Below, piece after piece: positions 6,165 through 51,055 of a stretch of 64,000 bases of DNA; the stretch's first letter is position 1; the number at the start of each line of letters is the position of its first letter. The notes beneath the pieces were generated by a model that saw nothing but the letters and a program-made list of their open reading frames with translations, was not told the origin of the DNA and did not search any database. Source of the DNA: Oscillatoria princeps RMCB-10 (GTDB taxonomy: Bacteria > Cyanobacteriota > Cyanobacteriia > Cyanobacteriales > Oscillatoriaceae). The stretch is from assembly GCA_019359235.1 (NCBI GenBank), contig JAHHHT010000012.1, forward strand, positions 131,648 through 195,647, written 5' to 3'. The position numbers were made by a program, and so were the translations under genes.

Positions 6165-6902
6165 ATGAAAAAACTGCTTTCTTCAATCCTGATTGTAGGC
6201 AGCCTGACCGCTAGCAGCCAGCTCTTGGCCTACCAACCAGCCTCAGCCCGCGCTGGCAACGAATTAGACAGCACTATTACGGCACTCCAATTGCTAGTTG
6301 ATGCTCCATGTTTGAAGTTCAATAAGCTGCCTATTAGCCAGGGAGGTTTCCGAGATATGCTGGAAGCCCTTGGAAAGCGTGAAACAGGACTTCCACCAGG
6401 AGATCCCAATCAGTACAAAGTAGAAAACTCGCTGGGTTTCATCGGAAAATACCAATTTGGAGAAGCTCTGCTGATTGACCTGGGCTACTACAAAGCCGAT
6501 GTTTACTATAATGGAGGCCAAAATGGCGTCGATAAGAATTACTGGCGGGGTGCGTGGACAGGAAAAAATGGGGCCTATAGCAAACAAGATTTTCTGAATA
6601 ACCCTCAAATTCAAGAAACAGCGATCCGTGAGGCTTTCCGCCTGAATGTTGAGATTATAAAACGGTCTCTTAGCCAGCAAGGAAAGTCCCTAAATAATTA
6701 TTTGGGCAGCACCAAGACATTGCAGGGCCAACAAATCCAAATTACTCTGTCAGGTATTTTAGCCGGCGCACACCTGCGCGGCCCTGATGGGGTGGCCAAT
6801 TTTCTGCTCAAAGACGAAGTATCTTCCGATGAGTTTGGCACTTCTATTCTCCAGTATATGTCTGAATTTAGCGGCTTCAATGTGACTGAAGCCGATTTTT
6901 AA
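6165..6902 (+). CDS. secreted hypothetical protein (N-terminal signal peptide)
   Basis: 245-aa ORF. MKKLLSSILIVGSLTASSQLLA is a signal-like N-terminus. No family recognised. Confidence 0.6.
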   Translation: MKKLLSSILIVGSLTASSQLLAYQPASARAGNELDSTITALQLLVDAPCLKFNKLPISQGGFRDMLEALGKRETGLPPGDPNQYKVENSLGFIGKYQFGEALLIDLGYYKADVYYNGGQNGVDKNYWRGAWTGKNGAYSKQDFLNNPQIQETAIREAFRLNVEIIKRSLSQQGKSLNNYLGSTKTLQGQQIQITLSGILAGAHLRGPDGVANFLLKDEVSSDEFGTSILQYMSEFSGFNVTEADF

Positions 6903-6949
6903 AAGTCCCGATTATAATCGATGGCCTGTACCGATTCAGCCTGGTATAG

Positions 6950-6980
6950 AAGGGGCAGTAATGCCCCTTTTCCCTTTTCC
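6950..6980 (+). terminator. rho-independent terminator-like hairpin downstream of 6165..6902
   Basis: GGGGCAGTAATGCCCC stem-loop followed by a TTTTCCCTTTTCC run. Confidence 0.5.
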
Positions 6981-7480
6981 GTTAAGGTTAAAGTAACAGG
7001 ATTTACGCAAGTCTCAATAGCGACCGCTGACAGTGTGACACTTAGAGCAGGAGGCAGTCCTTAATACGCCCGGTCAAAAAAATGGCCGCATTCGGTTTTT
7101 GCTGGATGGCACGCCAGTTCTGGATGAAGGTAAATTGACTTTCCGAACCGCTGACACCCTGAAAATCGACGGGATATTCTTCTCAACTTTTTTTGGGGGG
7201 GACGATCCCTCTTGGGCTACACCGGCACATGGTGGACTTCGCCCAGTTCTCCGTCCTAGAGGTGAGCTGAAGGCAAGTCGCTGCACTCGGTTTTTCACGC
7301 TCCGCACCAGAAGTGTTCTAAAATTAGAAGAGCCATGTTTTTAACTGCCTGACCTAGCTGAGGCGTACCGGGCAAAGCTGCCGGCTTTTTCCCCTCCCCC
7401 AGCGATGCGAAGCTGGGTGGCGTGCCGGCTGCCGGCAAAACTGATAAACTCAAAACACAGAGTTTAGGGGAATAGTTGCC

Positions 7481-8044
7481 ATGCTACCTCAGGGAATCTT
7501 TGGCGAATTGCCGGCGCTCGAAACTGACCGGCTGCTGCTGCGAAAAATGACGATGGAGGATGCGGCAGACATGTTTGAATATGCCAGCAATCCAGATGTC
7601 GCAAAATTCACCACTTGGAGGGCGCACAAGTCTGTAGAAGATAGCGAACTATTCCTGAGGGCGGTGATGGATGAGTACAGGAAACATGAGCCGTCTTCTT
7701 GGGGGATAGAGGAAAAATTTGAGCGCAAGCTGATCGGCACCTGTGGGTTTGCCAATTGGAGTCCTTCTGACTTTCGTGGGGAAATTGGCTACGCCCTCTC
7801 CAGAAAATACTGGGGGAAAGGATATATGACTGAGGCAGTCCGGGCGGCGATTGACTTTGGCTTTCGCACTTTGCAGCTGAATCGCATTGAAGCCAGATGC
7901 GAGATTAAAAATATTGCTTCCGCCCGCGTCATGGAAAAAGCCGGCATGAGATTTGAAGGCATCTTGCGACAGCACGCCTTTTACAAGGGTGCCTTTCGCG
8001 ATTTGAAAATGTACTCCATTCTCCGAAAGGAATGGGTGGAGTAA
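7481..8044 (+). CDS. GNAT family N-acetyltransferase (RimJ/RimL-like)
   Basis: 187 aa. Motifs IGTCGF...GEIGYAL...WGKGYMTEA and RIEARCEIKNIASARVMEKAGM are typical GNAT/RimL. Confidence 0.85.
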   Translation: MLPQGIFGELPALETDRLLLRKMTMEDAADMFEYASNPDVAKFTTWRAHKSVEDSELFLRAVMDEYRKHEPSSWGIEEKFERKLIGTCGFANWSPSDFRGEIGYALSRKYWGKGYMTEAVRAAIDFGFRTLQLNRIEARCEIKNIASARVMEKAGMRFEGILRQHAFYKGAFRDLKMYSILRKEWVE

Positions 8045-8056
8045 AGAAAAAGTAGA

Positions 8057-8090
8057 AACCGGGTAACTTCTGCGAAACCCGGTTTCTGGC
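8057..8090. repeat. GAAACCGGGT...ACCCGGTTTC inverted-repeat element between convergent genes (likely bidirectional terminator)
   Basis: agaaaccgggt-aacttctgcga-aacccggtttct. Sits between the GNAT stop (8044) and the fasciclin stop (8112). Member of a dispersed palindromic family seen at six or more loci. Confidence 0.55.
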
Positions 8091-8111
8091 ACCCATTCAG
8101 TATCGATTGCC

Positions 8112-8705
8112 CTACATATTGGGCGGCAGAATCACCTTATCGATGACGTGGATGACGCCGTTGCTGGCTTCGATGTCCGCCGAAGTCACATTTGCCTGAT
8201 TCACCATCACCTTGCCGGCATCAACTTTAACCATGACGGAGCTGCCCTCAACCGTCGCCACGTCTCCCGACTGCAAGCTGCCAGACTTGACCGCACCGGG
8301 AACCACATGGTAGGTCAAAATCTTGACCAGTTTGTCTTTGTTCTCCGGCTTTAACAGCTCTTCCACAGTGCCCTTTGGCAAAGCGGCAAACGCTTCATCC
8401 GTGGGCGCAAAAACAGTGAACGGGCCTTTTCCTGCCAGGGTGTCCACCAAACCGGCAGCTTGCAAAGCCGCTGTCAGGGTCTTGAACGAGTCATTCTTGC
8501 TCGCGATATCCACAATGCTGGGGCTGGTCGCGGCTGCTGCAGGACCGGCGACCTCAACCTCGACGGCGGAGGTGGGGGACGCCGGCTTGCTGGCGCTGTT
8601 ACAGGACTTCGCCGAAACTGGCATGCTGAGCAAGAAACTGGCACCGGCAACTGCCACAAGGCCAGCTAGCTTTCCGCCCCAGGTTTTAACGTTCTTTACC
8701 TTCAT
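8112..8705 (-). CDS. fasciclin (FAS1) domain secreted protein
   Basis: Signal peptide. [17 protein letters not shown]...[11 protein letters not shown]...[13 protein letters not shown] are hallmark FAS1 motifs. Confidence 0.85.
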
Positions 8706-9055
8706 AGCTTCTGGTCTTCCTTGGCCCGAATTTTACAAATTGTAAACTTATGTTTCATTGTATATCATTTCCTGCCGTTCCGCACTGCCAACCGTGCCGG
8801 GAAAATTTTTCGCTTGCCTGAGTAGGAATACTTAGGCTGCCGGAGGGAACCCTTGTGCGGTTCGGATTCGGAGGAAGTGGGGGCTGGCGCATGCGGCGGC
8901 GGCGTGCGACCGCCGGCTGCCCCCTGAGGTGTTAAGCATTTAATTGTGCAGTTTCGACTGCTGTGGGGATGGGTTTAAGGTCAGAATGTTATAAAATTGA
9001 CTGTTTTTACTAAATAGGTTAAAGAGCAAGTTAAATGTGCATATCTCACCCCTGT

Positions 9056-9141
9056 CCCCTATACCCTAACCCCTAACCCCTAACCCCCAATCCCCAATCC
9101 CCAATCCCCAATCCCCAATCCCCAATCCCCAATCCCCAAAC
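9056..9141. repeat. STRR-like tandem heptamer array (CCCTAAC x3 then CCCCAAT x8)
   Basis: Direct tandem heptamers read in sequence. CCCCAAT matches the cyanobacterial STRR1 consensus CCCCA(A/G)T. Confidence 0.8.
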
Positions 9142-9294
9142 GCTGCTACAGCGTCAGGTTCTTCCTTATGGCAGATGGAACCCTAGAGGCAAATTGATAG
9201 GGTAGCAATGGGAACCAATACACTTCACATTGAAAGTGCGAGCGCCCCATTTATGTTTTAAGGGCAAAGTTATCAAAAGCAAGGAGAGAAAGTC

Positions 9295-9567
9295 ATGTGG
9301 GACATTATTGCTTGGATTGTCTTAGGTCTGATTGCTGGCGCAATTGCTAAAGCCATCTATCCCGGGAGCCAAGGTGGCGGTATGGTTGCCACCATCATTC
9401 TGGGTATTTTGGGCGCTGTGGTTGGGGGCTGGGTGGGCAGAATGCTGATAGGGACAAGCGCCGGCGCTTCCTACGGGGCGCTGACGCTGCCCAGCATTGC
9501 TTTGGCGGTGCTGGGTGCGATGATTGTCCTTTTCTTGTGGGGTTTGTTTACTCGCCGCGCCGCCTGA
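9295..9567 (+). CDS. GlsB/YeaQ/YmgE family (transglycosylase-associated) small membrane protein
   Basis: 90 aa, Gly-rich, two to three TM segments, motif GxxGAxxG. Good SD AAGGAGAG upstream. Confidence 0.8.
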   Translation: MWDIIAWIVLGLIAGAIAKAIYPGSQGGGMVATIILGILGAVVGGWVGRMLIGTSAGASYGALTLPSIALAVLGAMIVLFLWGLFTRRAA

Positions 9568-9662
9568 TAGCGACACTGTCCGTTCTGCGGGTTCGGATTT
9601 TTCACTCTCCCCCAGGCAGAGCGCTGGGGGAGCTTTCCGCTTGAGAATATGGAGGTAGTGCA

Positions 9663-9866
9663 ATGCCCTGGAGCGAAAACGACTATCCAGCCGCGCTCGA
9701 GAACCTCACCGAAGAGGTGAGGGACAAGGCCATTGAGATAGCAAATGCTTTACTGGAAGAAAAGGATTGCGATCGAGGTAGGGCGATTCCGATCGCTATC
9801 GCTCAAGCTGAGGAATGGGCCAGCCGGCGCGGCAAGCCGGTCAAACAGCGAGACTATACCGATTGA
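9663..9866 (+). CDS. small conserved hypothetical protein
   Basis: 67-aa ORF with a helical, charged, protein-like composition. No family assigned. Confidence 0.4.
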   Translation: MPWSENDYPAALENLTEEVRDKAIEIANALLEEKDCDRGRAIPIAIAQAEEWASRRGKPVKQRDYTD

Positions 9867-9926
9867 TGCTATTTTCTAATAAGTCAGCGTTCTGCGGCAA
9901 CCTCAACAAGCTTAAGGAAATAGAAA

Positions 9927-10718
9927 ATGCTGGAGCTATATCAATCTGAACTGTCCCCGCACAGCGAGAAAGTGCGGCTGATGCTGGACTACAAAGGGCT
10001 GGCGTACCGCAAAATTGAAGTGACACCGGGCGTGGGACAGCTAGAAGTCTACCGGCTCTCCGGTCAGCCCCAGGTGCCGGTGCTCAAGGACGGTAATGTA
10101 GTTGTAGCCGATTCTACAGAAATCGCCAAATATCTAGACCGGCAGTATCCAGACCGCCCCCTGATTCCCGCCGGTGACAAACAGCGGGGGCTGTGCCTGC
10201 TCATGGAAGAATGGGCGGACGAGTCGATTGGGGCGAAAAGTCAGACGCTGCTGTTTTCCGCCCTCAGCTCTGACGGGAGCTTCCGCAGCGCCCTCTTGCC
10301 ACCGGCAACCCCGGATTTCCTCAGAACCCTCGTGGAAGCCGTTCCGGGGGATCTGCTCAAGGCGCTCGGCACCGGCATCGGCGCGGGCTCTGACGCCGTG
10401 AGCGCCGCTATGGAAGCCATCAAGCAAGACTTGGAAGCCCTCTGCTTGCTGCTGCAAGACAGCCCCTATTTGGTGGGCTCCCAGCCGACTTTAGCAGATT
10501 TTGCCGTAGCTGGGCTGTCGATGTTCCTCAAGTTCCCAGAGGGACAGTATCTGGATATTCCAGAAAAGCTCAAAGGCAAAGGCGTGCCCGGAATTGCTGA
10601 CAATTCCCTCTACGCACCGTTTTTCTCCTGGCGAGATCGCCTTTATGACCAATATCGCCAACCCCTGATGCCCACCGGCACCACCGGCTCTGTGCCAACT
10701 TCGATTCAAATAGAATAG
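9927..10718 (+). CDS. glutathione S-transferase family protein
   Basis: N-terminal thioredoxin-like GST fold: LYQSELSPHSEKVRLML...VPVLKDGNVVVADSTEIAKYLD. Confidence 0.75.
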   Translation: MLELYQSELSPHSEKVRLMLDYKGLAYRKIEVTPGVGQLEVYRLSGQPQVPVLKDGNVVVADSTEIAKYLDRQYPDRPLIPAGDKQRGLCLLMEEWADESIGAKSQTLLFSALSSDGSFRSALLPPATPDFLRTLVEAVPGDLLKALGTGIGAGSDAVSAAMEAIKQDLEALCLLLQDSPYLVGSQPTLADFAVAGLSMFLKFPEGQYLDIPEKLKGKGVPGIADNSLYAPFFSWRDRLYDQYRQPLMPTGTTGSVPTSIQIE

Positions 10719-11153
10719 TGGGATTGGGGTGCGTGACGCCGGGGAAGCAACCTATTTCTGCGGGGAGATCGGGTGAGGCGCGCGCACCCTACCAGGGAGA
10801 ATAACAGGAGTGCGGTGCCAACCGAACCACGCGAACACACCTTATTGATGGGGTGCTTTGGGTGATGCAGAAGGCACCCAACCTCCGCAAGAGATCCCAC
10901 CGGCTGCAAAAAATGCCGGTGGGTTTTGAATTTTCAACCGCCTCCCCTGAAGCACCCCACGCCCTGACAAAGGGCGTTTCCCCTCGCTCCCCCGCTCCGT
11001 CAGGGAGCCAGCGAGGGGAGGAGCTGCCTCCCATTCTACCACAAGCCGGTTCAACCCCTGCTTCCTGTTTCCAGAGGGAAAAAACCTTACCTCTGCTAGC
11101 TAGAAAATCAAAATTGATCGTAAGATCAGCCAGAAGGTTGAGAGATTAGAGCG

Positions 11154-12884
11154 ATGAATCTAGACAAACCACTGGGCTCGGTTATTCAAGGTTCTCTCAG
11201 TGAAGGGGTGGAAGTCCGGCTGCATCCTGACATCTCCGTCGAAGAAATGCGGGTGGGCAAGTTTTTGGTGGTGCAAGGGGTGCGAGCGCAGTTTTTTTGC
11301 ATGCTCACCGATGTCATCCTGGGAACCTCTAGCCCCCGCATTCTCGCCGATCCCCCCCTCGCCAGCGACACTTTGCTGCAGGAAATTCTGGCGGGAAGCA
11401 GCACCTACGGCACCCTGCAGCTCGCCCTCATGCTGATGTTCACCCCACCAAACCCGGAAAAAGCCCTCCGCAACTCCGCCCTTCAGTCAAAAGCGAGCAA
11501 AGCAGCGAAATCGGGGCTGGCGTCGTTTGAGGCGCAAACCAGCAGTGACATCGAATTGCTGCCGGTGAAGACAATTCCCAGCCACTTCTCGCAGGTTTAT
11601 GAAGCCACCGAGGAAGACTTTCGCTGCGTTTTCGGTTGGGAAGACGATCCCTACCGGCGCAACTTCGCGATCGGAAAACCCCTTGACATGGACGTGCCGG
11701 TGTGTGTCGATCTCGACCGGTTCGTCGAGCGCAGTAACGGAGTTTTCGGCAAATCCGGCACCGGCAAGTCTTTTCTCACCCGCCTGCTGCTGTCTGGCAT
11801 TATCCGCAAGCAAGCGGCGGTGAATCTTATTTTTGACATGCACTCCGAGTATGGCTGGGAAGCCGTTTCGGAAGGCAAGCAGTGCAGCACTGTCAAAGGT
11901 TTGCGCCAGCTTTTTCCCGGTCAGGTTGAAATTTACACCCTCGACCCCATTTCTACAAAAAGTCGCGGCGTGCGCGACGCCCAAGAACTGTATCTGAGCT
12001 ACGACCAAATTGAGGTCGAAGATATCGCCCTGGTGCAGCGCGAGCTAAATCTTTCCGAAGTCGCCCTGGAAAATGCTTTGATTCTCCGCAACGAGCTTGG
12101 CAACTCCTGGATTAGAGAGCTGCTGCTGATGAGCAATGAGGAGATTCAGGAATTCTGCGAGACGAAGAAAGGAAACAAGGCTTCTATTGGGGCGCTGCAG
12201 CGCAAGCTCGTGCGTCTGGAGGATCTGAAATACATGCGCGAGAAGGGGTCTAAAAATTACATCAGCCAGATTTTGAACTCCCTGGATGCCGGCAAGCATG
12301 TTGTGATTGAGTTTGGCTCCCACGCGGATATGCTATCATACATGATGGTGACTAATATGATATCCCGCCGGATTCACGCTAGCTATGTGCGCAAGTCCGA
12401 GAAGTTTTTGCGCACGAAAAATCCCAACGAGCGCCCCCGACAGCTGGTGATTACTATCGAAGAAGCCCACCGCTTTCTCGACCCCACTATCGTCCGCTCC
12501 ACGATTTTTGGCACCATCGCTCGCGAGATGCGGAAATATTTTGTTACCCTTTTGATAGTCGATCAGCGCCCTTCGGGCATTGATAATGAGATTATGTCTC
12601 AGATTGGCACCCGCATCACCGCTTTGCTCAACGATCAAAAAGACATTGACGCCATTTTCACCGGCGTCTCCGGAGCCGCCGGTTTGCGCTCTGTTTTGGC
12701 CAAGCTGGATTCCAAGCAACAAGCACTGGTTCTCGGACACGCCGTACCGATGCCGGTGGTGGTGCAAACTCGCCCCTACGACGAAACCTTCTACAGGGAA
12801 ATTGGCGAGATGGATTGGGAAAATATGCCAACCGAACTTGTGATGGAAGAAAGTGAATCCGCTATGGCGGATCTGGGTTTCTAG
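11154..12884 (+). CDS. HerA/FtsK-like P-loop ATPase (DUF87-type), no partner nuclease nearby
   Basis: 576 aa. Walker A GKSGTGKSF. Walker B LVITIEEAHRF. Motif LIVDQRPSGID. N-terminal barrel-like domain. Confidence 0.7.
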   Translation: MNLDKPLGSVIQGSLSEGVEVRLHPDISVEEMRVGKFLVVQGVRAQFFCMLTDVILGTSSPRILADPPLASDTLLQEILAGSSTYGTLQLALMLMFTPPNPEKALRNSALQSKASKAAKSGLASFEAQTSSDIELLPVKTIPSHFSQVYEATEEDFRCVFGWEDDPYRRNFAIGKPLDMDVPVCVDLDRFVERSNGVFGKSGTGKSFLTRLLLSGIIRKQAAVNLIFDMHSEYGWEAVSEGKQCSTVKGLRQLFPGQVEIYTLDPISTKSRGVRDAQELYLSYDQIEVEDIALVQRELNLSEVALENALILRNELGNSWIRELLLMSNEEIQEFCETKKGNKASIGALQRKLVRLEDLKYMREKGSKNYISQILNSLDAGKHVVIEFGSHADMLSYMMVTNMISRRIHASYVRKSEKFLRTKNPNERPRQLVITIEEAHRFLDPTIVRSTIFGTIAREMRKYFVTLLIVDQRPSGIDNEIMSQIGTRITALLNDQKDIDAIFTGVSGAAGLRSVLAKLDSKQQALVLGHAVPMPVVVQTRPYDETFYREIGEMDWENMPTELVMEESESAMADLGF

Positions 12885-45861: not shown

Positions 45862-46842
45862 GTGACTCATCCTCGTGTTATCTGCCTCGGTGAAATTTTG
45901 TTTGATTATCTGGCTGACCAGCCCGGGCACTCCCTAAAGCAGGTTGAGTCTTGGACACCCTATCCGGGAGGCGCACCGGCCAATGTGGCCTGCGCTCTAG
46001 CCAAGTTGGGGACGGCGGCGGGATTTATCGGCTGTGTGGGCCAAGATGACCCCGGGGACTCCCTGGTGCGGGTGCTGTCTCAAGCCGGTGTGGATGTCAC
46101 CGGCATCCAGCGCCACAAAACAGCACCCACAAGGGCAATTTACGTCGTGCGCTCACACACCGGCGAGCGGGAGTTTGCCGGTTTTGGCGAGCGGGACACC
46201 GGAGAATTTGCCGATACCTATCTCCAGAGCGACCAGTTGCCAGAGGAACTGTTTGAAAATGCTGAATTTCTGGTTTTGGGCACTCTGGAACTGGCTTATC
46301 CCCACAGCCGCAAGGCGATCTACCACGCCCTGCATCTAGCCGAGCAGCACTACGTCAAAATTGTGCTAGATGTTAATTGGCGACCGGTGTTTTGGCCCGA
46401 CCCCGCCGATGCTCCCCAGCTGATTCTGGATCTGCTGCCTCACGTCGATTTCCTCAAGCTTTCCGAAGACGAAGCTGAATGGCTCTTGGGCGCGACAGAT
46501 GCCAGTTCCATCTCCCACAAGCTCGACTCAGTGGAGGGTGTGCTGATCACCGCCGGCGAGCACGGTTGCTCCTACTGTCTGGGAGACACCTGCTCGCAGG
46601 TGCCGGCTTTCCCTGTTAAGGTGGCAGACACCACCGGCGCAGGGGATGGCTTTGTTGCCGGTTTTATCCACATGCTGTGCCAGCATGGGATTGGGATTCT
46701 GGAAGACGAGCAGATGGCGAAAAAGGTCGTCACCTATGCCAGTGCGGTGGGGGCGCTGACGGCGACTAAACCGGGTGCCATCGCCGGTGCACCTGATGCC
46801 GGTGAGGTGGAAGCTTTCTTGCACAGCAGCGCAGTTCACTAG
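45862..46842 (+). CDS. PfkB-family carbohydrate kinase (fructokinase-like)
   Basis: N-terminal ICLGEILFDY...GGAPANVA. C-terminal TTGAGDGFVAGF motif. Confidence 0.8.
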   Translation: MTHPRVICLGEILFDYLADQPGHSLKQVESWTPYPGGAPANVACALAKLGTAAGFIGCVGQDDPGDSLVRVLSQAGVDVTGIQRHKTAPTRAIYVVRSHTGEREFAGFGERDTGEFADTYLQSDQLPEELFENAEFLVLGTLELAYPHSRKAIYHALHLAEQHYVKIVLDVNWRPVFWPDPADAPQLILDLLPHVDFLKLSEDEAEWLLGATDASSISHKLDSVEGVLITAGEHGCSYCLGDTCSQVPAFPVKVADTTGAGDGFVAGFIHMLCQHGIGILEDEQMAKKVVTYASAVGALTATKPGAIAGAPDAGEVEAFLHSSAVH

Positions 46843-46853
46843 CTGAAGCGGTA

Positions 46854-46889
46854 AGAAACCGGGTTTCTTTGGGAAAAACCCGGTTTCTA
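46854..46889. repeat. tandem pair of GAAACCGGGTTTC palindromic elements after the fructokinase gene
   Basis: agaaaccgggtttctttgggaaaaacccggtttct. Confidence 0.6.
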
Positions 46890-46963
46890 GTATGACTGCG
46901 ATCCGCCACCGCCTTTGAGCGGTTTTAAATTTTGTTAAATCGTTCAGTGAGAAAAATAGGAGA

Positions 46964-47045
46964 CTGATGGCGACTCAACCGGGTGCTATCGCCGCCGCAA
47001 CTAATGCCGGTGATTTGCAAGCTTTCCCGCAGCGCGATTCACTAG
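46964..47045 (+). pseudogene. duplicated fragment of the fructokinase 3' end (about 82 bp, about 80% identical to 46758-46842)
   Basis: ctgatggcgactcaaccgggtgctatcgccgc...cactag aligns with ctgacggcgactaaaccgggtgccatcgccgg...cactag. Followed at 47066-47080 by another agaaaccgggtttct element. Confidence 0.55.
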
Positions 47046-47423
47046 AGCGCCAGTCTTGAAATCTCAGAAACCGGGTTTCTTTTGGCAATTACGACGTAAA
47101 ATCGGTCTTGAAAGGGAGAGAAACCCGTTTTCTTAACCCCAGACAAAATCGATGCAACCGGCTTGATATAACCGGCTCCCTGAAATGCCAAACTCGGGTA
47201 TTTTTATCGCCAATCGACTCTTATATAGCAGTTCTAAATGATTTGTGAAATCCTCTCTCTTTTCTTGACTTGGCGCTCTACCCTGCGGGAAGCCGCTTGC
47301 GCGTCTATGGCGTCTTGGCGGTAAAAAAATTCACAAATCAATTCTAACCGCTACAGCTCAAAATTACAAATTCCAATGGGCTCCCGCCGGCCAGTGGGGT
47401 GCGCCGCAGCGCACCCTGCTGTA

Positions 47424-48743
47424 TCACAGGAATTCGCGGGGGTCGGTGACGAAGCCGGTGAGCGCCGAAGCTGCTGCAGTATACGGCGAGGCGAGATAAA
47501 TTTGCGCTTCCTTATTTCCCATCCGCCCTGGGAAATTGCGGTTGGTGGTGGAAACACAAACCTCTGGCTCATTCAGACGCCCAAAAGTATCCTTGGGTCC
47601 GCCCAAACAAGCGGCGCAAGAAGGTGCAGCCGGCTCAATGCACCCAGCAGCTAGGAAAATTTCCGACAGAGTTTGCCCCTCGTATTTCTGTGCGAACAAA
47701 TCTTCGTAGACTTTTTGGGTTGCCGGCACCAGATAAGTGGGCACCTTCACCTGACGCCCCTTCAGAATGCGGGCGGCGTTAATAAAGTCAGAAGTTTTGC
47801 CGCCGGTGCAAGAACCGATATACACTCGGTTTATCTTGACATCGCGGCATTCTCGTGCTAAGGCGCGATTGTCCGGAGAGTGGGGCTTGGCGACCACCGG
47901 CTCCAATGTGGAGACATCGCAGTGCCACGAACTGTAGAACTTGGCGTCCGCATCGGTGTACACCGGCTCAAACGGCTTGTCAGTGCGGGCGCGGACATAT
48001 TCAAAAGTCGTTTCATCCGGGGCGATGGTGCCATTTTTGCCGCCGGCTTCTATAACCATATTGCACAGCGTCATCCGCTCTTCCATCGACATGCGCCGCA
48101 CAGCTTCGCCGGCAAACTCTATCGTCCGGTAGTTGGCACCGGACACCGTAATATCCCCGATAATTTGCAAAATCAGGTCTTTCGCCAGCAGGTAAGGAGG
48201 CATTTCGCCGTCGAGGACAAAGCGCATCGTCGCCGGCACCTTAATCAGCAGCTTGCCGGTGCCGAGGATAAAGGCGGCGTCGGTATTGCCGATGCCGGTG
48301 GCGAACTCGCCGAACGCACCGGCATTGCAAGTGTGCGAATCGGTGCCAAACAGCACTTCTCCCGGACGGGTGTGACCCTCTTGTGCCAGGGCGATGTGAC
48401 AGACGCCCTTATAATCCGGGTTAGCCTTAAAGTTCGACCGGTCTGTGATGTCGTAGAAATATTTGATCCCCTGCTCTCGGGCAAAATCGCGCAGAATATC
48501 GACATTGCGGTTAGCCCGCTCGTCGGCGGTGAAGATATAGTGGTCGGGAATCAGAACAATCTTCTCCGGGTCCCAGACTTTGGCGTCCGAGCCAAATTCC
48601 CGCTTGAACACCCCGATCGTGCCCGGACCGCAGACATCGTGGGTCATCAGAAGATCCACGTTCACCCAGATATTCTCACCCGGTTCCACAGCAGACCGGC
48701 CCGCAGCTCTGGCCAATATTTTTTCGGTGAGGGTCATCCCCAT
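47424..48743 (-). CDS. leuC: aconitase-family dehydratase large subunit (LeuC/HacA-like, short archaeal-type)
   Basis: 439 aa. MTLTEKIL...MTHDV N-terminus. Fe-S Cys motifs SCTGG and TTNRNFPGRMG. Confidence 0.75.
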   Translation of the reverse strand: MGMTLTEKILARAAGRSAVEPGENIWVNVDLLMTHDVCGPGTIGVFKREFGSDAKVWDPEKIVLIPDHYIFTADERANRNVDILRDFAREQGIKYFYDITDRSNFKANPDYKGVCHIALAQEGHTRPGEVLFGTDSHTCNAGAFGEFATGIGNTDAAFILGTGKLLIKVPATMRFVLDGEMPPYLLAKDLILQIIGDITVSGANYRTIEFAGEAVRRMSMEERMTLCNMVIEAGGKNGTIAPDETTFEYVRARTDKPFEPVYTDADAKFYSSWHCDVSTLEPVVAKPHSPDNRALARECRDVKINRVYIGSCTGGKTSDFINAARILKGRQVKVPTYLVPATQKVYEDLFAQKYEGQTLSEIFLAAGCIEPAAPSCAACLGGPKDTFGRLNEPEVCVSTTNRNFPGRMGNKEAQIYLASPYTAAASALTGFVTDPREFL

Positions 48744-50724: not shown

Positions 50725-50842
50725 AGGTTTTTGATTCGCTCTGCAGTGTAAGACACATCCAGGTTCGGGCAAACCACCTTAAGCAGAATAGCAGTTCCTA
50801 CCTAGCCACTGGCTTACTGGGGCTACCGGCTCAATCCGGGAC

Positions 50843-51055
50843 AGAAACCAGATTTCTTTGAGAAACTTGGTTTCTAGTGGCCACTCAGGCGCGGAGTTGG
50901 CCACAGGGCGTCTCCAGGCGGAGGCGGGAGAGAAATCAGATTTCTTTGAGAAACTTGGTTTCTAGTGGCCACCCAGGCGCGGAGTTTCCCACAGGGCGTC
51001 TCCAGGCGGAGGCGGGACAGAAACCAGGTTTCTTTGAGAAACCCGGTTTCTTGTT
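50843..51055. repeat. 2.4 tandem copies of an 88-bp unit built from GAAACCnGnTTTC palindromes
   Basis: Units at 50843-50930, 50931-51018 and partial 51019-51055. Confidence 0.8.

Follow-up and report, generated by a model that had tools for sequence, protein, structure and literature searches.

A decayed second copy of the fructokinase 3′ end as the probable flank of an ancient, largely deleted insertion in Oscillatoria princeps RMCB-10

A partial second copy of the 3′ end of the fructokinase gene frk lies downstream of that gene in the window, the 64,000-nucleotide stretch of Oscillatoria princeps RMCB-10 DNA analysed here. Comparison with related genomes suggests that this copy (A′) is a functionless pseudogene relic: the right-hand flank of an ancient insertion that was accompanied by a target duplication and whose insert was later deleted, a reading to which we assign a probability of about 0.72. 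The locus offers a clean natural series of empty, filled and decayed site, in which an accessory gene would have been gained between two convergent genes, with neither harmed, and then lost within a narrow clade. Four genomes are informative, three of them metagenome assemblies. The features of the region are collected in Table 1.

Table 1. Features between frk and the leuC-like gene, in window coordinates. L003 is Oscillatoria sp. PCC 10802; L085 is a metagenome contig with the empty site.
Feature	Position	Strand	Basis or remark
frk, PfkB-family carbohydrate kinase (fructokinase), intact, 326 aa	45862..46842	+	ORF
A, last 87 nt of frk, 29 codons including the stop	46756..46842	+	functional copy of the duplicated segment
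Rest of unit copy 1: 11-nt spacer, palindrome doublet B (46854-46888), AGTAT	46843..46893	.	comparison with L085 and L003
C, 47 nt from the start of the insert (L003 7033-7079)	46894..46940	+	collinear, ~95% identity
Last 23 nt of ORF345 (..RSVRKIGD) and stop TGA at 46965-46967	46941..46967	+	L003 8296-8322
A′, decaying duplicate of the frk 3′ end, probable pseudogene fragment, with 5-nt deletion	46964..47045	+	
Incidental 30-aa ORF over A′	46967..47059	+	ATG 46967 to TGA 47057-47059
Copy 2 spacer (20 nt) and B′, half-palindromes at 47066-47080 and 47119-47133, 38 nt apart	47046..47133	.	
Deletion scar	47134..47150	.	L003 has ~2.7 kb here (about 8690-11343)
Large subunit of an aconitase-family dehydratase (leuC-like), conserved downstream anchor	47424..48743	-	ORF

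The frk product is identical to MBW4494624.1 (Oscillatoria princeps RMCB-10); homologues of the gene carry PF00294, some of them named fructokinase, and PF00330 is recorded on orthologues of the leuC-like gene in three related loci (L082, L086 and L090). The 581 nt between the two genes can be read as stacked scars, comprising the target duplication, both ends of a lost foreign gene, the gluconokinase deletion and some small repeats. A search of 46600-47500 for known RNA families gave one miRNA match, on the palindrome and at chance level (E 0.83).

A′ matches A at 69 of 87 positions (79.3%) with one 5-nt gap, and at 82% over the first 68 nt without gaps. The repeat that the first-pass annotation had placed at 46964-47045 with about 80% identity, subject to its significance on self-comparison, is real: BLASTN against the whole 64-kb window gave E = 3e-16. 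Nor is the duplication an assembly artefact: Logan assembly L081, produced independently, has exactly the window sequence over 46843-47088, and the arrangement recurs in a MAG of a different study (L001). The copies do not form a simple tandem duplication with a single head-to-tail joint; 70 nt (46894-46963) separate them in the window, and TRF reported no tandem array at the frk-end duplication. Two details of the earlier description need correction. The window copy was credited with an in-frame stop of its own (...QRDSLE*), but there the TAG of 'cactag' has lost its frame through the 5-nt deletion and is in frame only in L001, whose A′ lacks the deletion. The copies were also said to be bracketed by palindromes, which is not simply so, as the left edge of each (CTGA) has none: that of copy 1 lies inside the frk coding sequence and that of copy 2 adjoins the last codons of the deleted foreign gene.

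The functional 3′ end shares 92–96% identity with its counterparts in L001, L002 and L003. A′ differs from a reconstructed ancestral A at 12 positions in 82 nt, nine of them at codon positions 1–2, and its V>L, E>Q and L>P changes turn the EVEAFL motif, invariant in about 85 frk genes, into DLQAFP or ELQAFP. Between the window and L001, A′ is 87% identical, compared with 94–96% for its flanks. These two genomes have the copy at full length, L003 has 35 nt of it, and L085, L002, L082 and L086 have none. This patchy presence, and a frame that differs between relatives, are not those of an independent ORF conserved in all relatives, the alternative that had been named at the outset. Homology, lost constraint and patchy presence, the three marks of a gene relic, are all found in A′. 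We infer that A′ is free of purifying selection, given that all codon positions have changed, the frame is unstable and conserved residues are lost.

Counting against the preferred reading, the divergence of A′ from the ancestral A (12.6–14.6%) is 1.5–2.5 times the per-lineage four-fold-site divergence, with the cluster of window, L001, L003 and L085 as reference (pairwise values 0.09–0.115). Either the event is older than the radiation of this cluster or the relic mutates faster. An older event would mean that L085 either branched earlier or lost the insert by repeat recombination. A role for A′ as gene-conversion donor of the AAAPN or APNAAE alleles of frk was considered and rejected: these alleles occur without A′ (L082, L084 and L085) and, because they match the outgroup consensus, are evidently ancestral polymorphism.

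At the empty site, in L085, frk is followed by an 86-nt spacer with a palindrome pair and by a convergent gluconokinase gene, and AGTAT directly adjoins the gluconokinase stop codon. This convergent pair is probably ancestral, because it is present at more than 20 distant cyanobacterial loci. At the filled site, in PCC 10802, a 1,286-nt insert (7033-8318) sits between two copies of a unit made of the frk 3′ end, spacer and palindrome (copy 1, 6895-7032; copy 2, 8319-8690), and copy 2 ends at the gluconokinase stop. Copy 1 of the window follows the empty site closely: A and the rest of the unit are 92.8% identical to L085 over 125 nt, and TCTAGTAT is common to window copy 1, L085 and L003 copy 2. 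The unit measures 138 nt in window copy 1 versus 173 nt in L085, with a 35-nt deletion within B, between two half-palindromes. Demonstrable homology between the two window copies is confined to the 87-nt frk part; the copy 2 spacer is 9 nt longer and agrees with that of copy 1 at about 5 of 11 positions, and the interior of B′ is about 50% like that of the L085 palindrome pair. The layout of B′ resembles the uncompacted pair of the empty site, and its L001 counterpart is 70% identical to the L085 pair over 70 nt (E 6e-5). Because of L003 and L085 we extend the unit to the palindrome and AGTAT; as members of a repeated family, the palindromes at the two copies could be independent copies.

The insert of PCC 10802 is AT-rich (GC 43.6% versus 58.1% and 58.6% in the flanking genes) and carries one ORF (ORF345), for a 345-aa secreted hypothetical protein without a Pfam match. 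Among 80 loci, ORF345 lies beside frk only in PCC 10802, its nearest other homologues (48–49% identity) stand in unrelated accessory contexts, and the Logan contigs with ORF345 are identical to PCC 10802. Low GC, the restriction to a single frk locus and the unrelated contexts of its homologues mark the insert as being, in all likelihood, of foreign origin. Among plasmids and phages, the donor search gave distant N-terminal matches on two cyanobacterial plasmids and nothing else; as no donor sequence was found, junction microhomology, and hence the molecular mechanism, is not readable. The insert also differs from a transposon or MITE with its target-site duplication: it lacks terminal inverted repeats, occurs once among the loci examined and is flanked by a duplication of 138–173 nt. 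At the right junction, the last 2–3 codons of ORF345 are removed and the stop codon is borrowed from frk, the TGA forming part of CTGA, the four bases with which A′ opens. The 3′ end of the 345-aa ORF (L003 8296-8322) reads cgttcagtgagaaacataggaaaCTGA, and the ORF345 C-terminus aligns with those of family members.

Of the insert, the window and L001 retain no more than 47 nt at the start and 23 nt at the end, and 1,216 nt (L003 7080-8295) are missing; window 46894-46963 is collinear with both insert ends. Because both ends remain, including codons of the ORF345 C-terminus, the window state would derive from deletion. Within C, a terminator-like hairpin (46908-46923) is followed by TTTTAAATTTT. 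C was also considered as a relic of the gluconokinase 3′ end, LKGGGGSQSY* resembling LRAGGSEHSS* by eye, and rejected, local and left-anchored alignments being no better than those of shuffles (p = 0.19–0.57). At the deletion scar, PCC 10802 has the gluconokinase gene, a repeat-protein gene and non-coding DNA, and beyond it window 47151-47205 matches L003 11344-11398 and window 47380-47423 matches L003 11470-11513. The gluconokinase gene is lost in L001 and in the window, where no gluconokinase was found, and the window deletion starts 0–7 nt from another palindrome. Besides PCC 10802's own gene, a gluconokinase of at least 95% identity was found in L085 only (next best, 73%), and the junction of ORF345 with A′ had 0 matches in metagenome contigs.

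A palindromic element follows each frk-end copy, as first noted (AGAAACCGGGTTTCT at 46854-46868 and 47066-47080). Its family has 31 matches (up to two mismatches, both strands) versus 0.05 expected. The elements usually form doublets, 18–20 nt apart and of opposite orientation by their central G or C, and the clear copies are all intergenic. Doublets fold as a 13–15-bp hairpin and also bound longer units of 60–90 nt; the B hairpin (46854-46888) reaches -21.6 kcal/mol on the minus strand (z = -6.1) and the fold of B′ -26.7 kcal/mol. Element content at the frk site varies among close relatives: L002, L082 and L086 have 2–3 MITE-like copies, and in L003 the copies are nested. A three-doublet array with an 88-nt period and 2.4 copies occupies 50837-51051, where L082 has a single doublet. 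No target-site duplications were seen at the palindromes and a literature search for their sequence found no paper; the family is widespread and apparently undescribed.

That this family copies its flanks, as had been suggested, is unsupported. The pair already stands once in the empty site, the frk-end copies bracket a 1,286-nt insert, and the inner boundary between the ORF345 end and A′ is palindrome-free, all of which points to the palindrome being a passenger within the duplicated unit rather than an agent of flank copying. The further suggestion of mobility or local recombination is compatible with the copy-number variation and with breakpoints near palindromes, the insert's left junction lying 5 nt from one. 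The family may thus be, or once have been, mobile, and its palindromes may promote recombination, several breakpoints adjoining them.

The 30-aa ORF over A′ (MATQPGAIAAATNAGDLQAFPQRDSLERQS*) should not be annotated as a gene. It is hardly credible that the fragment encodes a functional peptide of 27–30 aa, even though the frame stays open for 30 aa in the window (27 aa in L001) and the ATG is preceded at 3 nt by an apparent Shine–Dalgarno sequence (AGGAGA). This sequence is a remnant of ORF345 codons (..IGD), and the ATG at 46967 is a lineage-specific C>T change that is missing in L003 (CTGAAGACG). A 5-nt indel gives the window and L001 different frames and C-termini. Four relatives lack the fragment, which is less conserved than neighbouring non-coding DNA and has no Pfam or other family match.

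Duplication and insertion might instead have been separate. In this alternative, which we consider unlikely, palindrome-associated slippage or unequal exchange made a tandem unit, and the ORF345 fragment later entered exactly at the joint, a hot spot. The local tandem array of doublets at 50837-51051, set against the single doublet of L082, speaks for it, as do the closeness of the insert's left junction to a palindrome and the other breakpoints that adjoin palindromes. The price is a second event precisely at the joint, with no base lost or gained, and a unit whose frk-side edge has no palindrome or repeat to drive unequal exchange. No relative is in the insert-free tandem state (L085, L002, L082 and L086 are single-copy), and the predicted joint had 0 matches in a scan of metagenome contigs. 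Quite improbable, in our judgement, is that A′ represents the original end of the resident frk, or of a second paralogue, and that A was imported by homology-facilitated illegitimate recombination (HFIR), the crossover in frk being homologous and the join at the ORF345 end illegitimate. HFIR is established among transformable bacteria (PMC3240628), the insert has a foreign composition, and A′ lies farther from A than the synonymous divergence of the cluster predicts while retaining outgroup-allele states (AIAA, N and AAE). However, A, spacer and palindrome are clade-standard sequence that is contiguous with gluconokinase in L085, and the GC-rich composition of A is that of the host, not of the insert. 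The frk genes of the window, L001 and L003 are, moreover, no farther from L085 than from each other, and the three substitutions in an invariant motif suggest a decayed copy, not a working foreign allele.

Site-specific integration fares worse still. The copies could represent the attL and attR sites of a small islet, mobilised by an integrase, that targeted and restored the frk 3′ end and was then mostly deleted; direct repeats that include the target 3′ end flank foreign DNA in PCC 10802, the 3′ end of the target gene is reconstituted and the GC content of the insert is foreign. Yet ORF345 is the sole gene of that insert, which has no tyrosine or serine recombinase gene or other integrase ORF, and the cut through the final ORF345 codons points to an imprecise join. 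The repeat spans 138–173 nt and ends at the stop codon of the neighbouring gene, and among the loci and metagenome contigs examined no other genome has an insertion at the frk site. We therefore rate an islet as very improbable, although a larger island, since decayed, could in principle have been present.

Under the preferred reading, an insertion with target duplication, the comparison suggests the following course. The ancestor would have had frk, the 86-nt spacer with its palindrome pair and the convergent gluconokinase gene. In the common ancestor of the window lineage, L001 and PCC 10802, an AT-rich foreign fragment of ~1.29 kb with ORF345 would have inserted at the gluconokinase stop codon, accompanied by a direct duplication from 87 nt inside frk to that stop (173 nt in the empty site). 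Such a duplication of the whole unit would leave frk intact on the left and gluconokinase intact on the right. The redundant right-hand frk end would then have decayed unconstrained; the ancestor of the window and L001 would have lost 1,216 nt and with them all but the last 23 nt of ORF345; gluconokinase and its neighbour would have gone in a further deletion that began at palindrome B′; and A′ in the window would finally have lost 5 nt.

Insertion and duplication probably arose in one illegitimate event, which two routes would fit. Replication may have stalled just past the palindrome hairpin and switched template onto a taken-up foreign fragment, copying to the fragment's end inside the last ORF345 codons before re-priming 173 nt upstream. 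Alternatively, the foreign fragment may have bridged two sister chromosome copies at staggered positions; cyanobacteria are naturally transformable and polyploid. The palindrome would possibly have served as a break-promoting site. A broader proposal, which we hold to be doubtful, is that the AGAAACCSGGTTTCT doublets are an undescribed REPIN-like family whose hairpins stall replication, so that template switching captures foreign DNA between convergent genes. If this were true, captures would carry target duplications of 100–200 nt with both genes intact, and the frk relic would be one trace of a general way, seeded by palindromes, in which genes are gained and lost. As it stands, the finding is an ordinary genomic scar that leaves the current view of bacterial genome dynamics unchanged, and its main value lies in annotation and reconstruction.

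Several known systems resemble parts of this locus. Like REP/REPIN elements (PMC3116915, PMC3733652) and cyanobacterial MITEs, the AGAAACCSGGTTTCT palindromes are short, extragenic and over-represented, form inverted hairpin doublets and differ in copy number between close relatives. In REP sequences, however, one end bears a tetranucleotide tag, GTAG or CGTC (Di Nocera et al. 2013, PMC3733652). By inspection, one of nine copies here has such a tag (GTAG, at 8054) and the others start with aAG, cAG or taG, so that the palindromes lack the tag as a family feature, as they lack target-site duplications. Duplications at att sites in the 3′ ends of tRNA or protein genes likewise produce direct repeats that include the target 3′ end and leave the gene intact, but the frk locus has no integrase, its junction in the cargo gene is imprecise, the site has not been reused and the repeat is much longer than typical att core identity segments.

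Closer to the proposed event, transforming DNA that integrates between sister chromosomes creates duplications in Streptococcus pneumoniae (Johnston et al. 2013, PMC3784515). There, and in HFIR (PMC3240628), foreign DNA comes to be flanked by a direct duplication of the recipient through an imprecise join, without transposase or integrase. The pneumococcal duplications span 100–900 kb and their pairing sites are IS-derived repeats (PMC3784515), whereas the frk duplication spans 138–173 nt, has no pairing repeat at its frk-side edge and would owe its mechanism to one of the routes suggested above. Finally, A′ shares with the gene relics found beside insertions in bacteria its nature as a 3′ fragment of a neighbouring functional gene, its unconstrained frame and codon positions, its patchy occurrence among close relatives and its place beside remnants of foreign DNA. 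It differs from them in that frk itself is intact, A′ being, on the reading we favour, the redundant half of a target duplication and not the remainder of a disrupted gene.

The final 87 nt of the fructokinase gene frk (A) recur downstream as a degraded copy (A′) that matches at 69 of 87 positions and has a single 5-nt gap; the first 68 nt align gap-free at 82% identity. This repeat, which the first-pass annotation had pointed out, is real, as a BLASTN search of the whole window detects it at E = 3e-16, positions 46843-47088 are identical in an independent Logan assembly, and L001, an uncultured Oscillatoria MAG from a separate study, has the same layout. Also confirmed was a palindrome (AGAAACCGGGTTTCT) 3′ of both A and A′. 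The in-frame stop ascribed to A′ is wrong for the window, where the 5-nt deletion shifts the TAG within 'cactag' to another frame; it is in frame in L001 only. The ORF over A′ in the window runs from ATG 46967 to TGA 47057-47059 (30 aa). The observation thus stood with corrections, and its interpretation was supported only in part.

Close relatives were gathered by genome scan and exact-protein look-ups; the window frk protein is MBW4494624.1 (MAG Oscillatoria princeps RMCB-10). Judged by four-fold-site divergence of frk, the window, L001, L003 (Oscillatoria sp. PCC 10802, alias Kamptonema formosum) and the Logan contig L085 form a star-like cluster (0.09-0.115), with 0.13-0.22 to the Prado101-type group (L002, L082, L084 and L086). 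L085 presents an empty site, in which frk is followed after 86 nt, holding two half-palindromes 42 nt apart, by a convergent gluconokinase gene (168 aa; PF01202/PF13671). This convergent arrangement is ancestral, because over 20 distant loci in cyanobacteria share it, frequently with a gap of only 10-20 nt.

In PCC 10802, a unit made up of the last 87 nt of frk, a spacer, the palindrome and AGTAT is present twice, on either side of a foreign insert (43.6% GC, versus 58.1% for frk and 58.6% for gluconokinase). The insert encodes a 345-aa protein (ORF345) with a signal-peptide-like N terminus, in which no Pfam domain was found. ORF345 adjoined frk at none of 79 loci other than L003, and its nearest other homologues (48-49% identity) lie in unrelated accessory neighbourhoods with Uma2 and PemK genes; no donor was found among ORF345 homologues, plasmids and phages or in a metagenome junction scan. 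The left junction falls directly after AGTAT, at most 3 nt from the empty-site position of the gluconokinase stop codon. At the right junction, the C terminus (..ILRSVRNIGN) aligns with family C termini, ending 2-3 residues short, and the stop TGA sits within CTGA, the start of A′, which indicates an imprecise join at the extreme end of ORF345. A′ is shortened to 35 nt here by nested inverted repeats at L003 8354-8601 (three concentric arm pairs, including an AGAAACC-type MITE); Elhai et al. reportedly described a similar arrangement of nested small mobile repeats in Nostocales in 2008.

Coordinates of the frk 3′-end repeat and associated features
Feature	Sequence	Coordinates	Strand	Remark
frk	window	45862..46842	+	PfkB family
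A	window	46756-46842	+	final 87 nt of frk
A′	window	46964-47045		recurrence of A
Spacer after A′	window			20 nt
B′	window	47066-47133		split palindrome pair
Unit copy 1	L003	6895-7032
Insert between unit copies	L003	7033-8318		1,286 nt
Unit copy 2	L003	8319-8690		ends at gluconokinase stop codon
Gluconokinase region, present in L003 and missing from window and L082	window; L003; L082	47134-47150; 8690-11343; 6982-7183
70-85-nt element copies	L002; L082; L086	7003-7170; 7024-7176; 2438-2590

The window retains both ends of this insert, collinear with L003: 46894-46940 match its first 47 nt (~95% identity) and 46941-46963 its last 23 nt (~91%), encoding ..RSVRKIGD. The window and L001 therefore derive from the filled state and then lost 1,216 nt (L003 7080-8295), a direction that is secure because inserting the first 97% cannot rebuild an in-frame ORF. 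A terminator-like hairpin in the kept left end (46908-46933; ACCGC-CTTTGA-GCGGT, then TTTTAAATTTT) may now help to end frk transcription. The unit measures 138 nt here versus 173 nt in L085, owing to a 35-nt deletion between the half-sites of copy 1.

Right after B′, 47151-47205 correspond to L003 11344-11398, ~2.7 kb further along that contig, so gluconokinase and its neighbour were deleted from the window. Present in most cyanobacteria, the convergent gene is also absent here from L001 and, through an independent loss with different breakpoints, from the Prado101-type genomes. Among 5.8 billion proteins, gluconokinase at ≥95% identity is retained only in PCC 10802 and L085 (next best, 73%), which suggests that the other lineages lost it outright, and at least twice independently within the clade. 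A second MITE-like element lies at 47222-47357, with 24-nt inverted repeats (47226-47249 and 47330-47353) around 80 nt and a predicted fold of -37.6 kcal/mol (z = -3.2). It occurs in L001 and is not at the same place in L003 or L002. The 29-43 nt at its ends have matching loci in Nostoc, Coleofasciculus and a Leptolyngbyaceae MAG.

The palindrome family is strongly over-represented, with 31 matches (≤2 mismatches) versus 0.05 expected. Its elements are inverted doublets predicted to form 13-15-bp hairpins (z = -6.1), all clear copies are intergenic, and other filamentous cyanobacteria, including Symploca and Microseira, also carry them. The proposal that the family copied its flank in transposon style fails, because the palindrome pair already exists in the empty site, inside the duplicated unit, whose frk-side edge lacks a palindrome. 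The other suggestion, that palindromes mediate local recombination, is plausible from the coincidence of breakpoints with palindromes, one lying 5 nt from the left insert junction and the gluconokinase deletion starting 0-7 nt from B′. The 35-nt deletion between the half-sites of copy 1 and a doublet array downstream are further such coincidences.

Elsewhere in the window, 50837-51051 form a tandem array (88-nt period, 2.4 copies, 92% matches) with a doublet per unit and three doublets in total; the orthologous site in L082, between OEP and HisKA genes, has a single doublet. In Prado101-type genomes, the spacer between frk and the aconitase-family gene leuC consists almost entirely of 2-3 tandem, MITE-like copies of a 70-85-nt element (AGAAACCGGGTTTCTTAAT..(about 30 nt)..ATTCCAGAAACCCGGTTTCT), showing that the 15-nt palindromes also serve as ends of a longer unit. 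One metagenomic frk allele (L084 5930-5962; compare L082 6970-7020) encodes 332 aa ending ...AVGARNRVS*: a ~41-nt deletion into a palindrome-ended element removed the last two codons (FH) and the stop, and the frame runs on into the repeat. This allele could be an assembly artefact.

A functional micro-ORF over A′ might be read from its ATG and the seeming Shine-Dalgarno AGGAGA before it. AGGAGA is inherited from the ORF345 codons for IGD, and the start codon is lineage-specific, with CTGAAG at that point in L003. Measured against the reconstructed ancestral A, A′ carries changes at 12 of 82 sites (window), 11 of 87 (L001) and 5 of 35 (L003); for the functional frk-end copies the figure is 2-7%. 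The changes fall mostly at codon positions 1-2 and include V>L, E>Q and L>P in EVEAFL, a motif invariant in ~85 frk genes; when the window is compared with L001, identity is 87% within A′ and 94-96% in its flanks. On these comparisons, A′ is a relic under no constraint, and its 30-aa ORF is incidental.

Comparison of the sites shows the order of events, from empty, to filled with the duplication, to decayed. Most economically, we infer, insert and duplication arose in one illegitimate event. Rival readings place the duplication first and the insertion later, derive A′ from HFIR or a frk paralogue, or invoke an integrase-mobilised islet. The weak points of the reconstruction are that A′ divergence is 1.5-2.5 times the four-fold-site prediction for an event at the cluster base, that the spacers after A and A′ align poorly, that the B′ interior is only ~50% like that of the L085 pair, and that the searches found no donor. 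Such a single event could have proceeded by template switching after replication stalled at a hairpin, or by a piece of foreign DNA that bridged two copies of the chromosome at offset positions.

The frk-end repeat is thus an ordinary genomic scar, useful for annotation, and the locus offers a worked example of an accessory gene gained, then lost, between convergent genes. The scar adds one more case to a class already known, and the bridging route would resemble the transformation-induced interchromatid integration described previously (PMC3784515).
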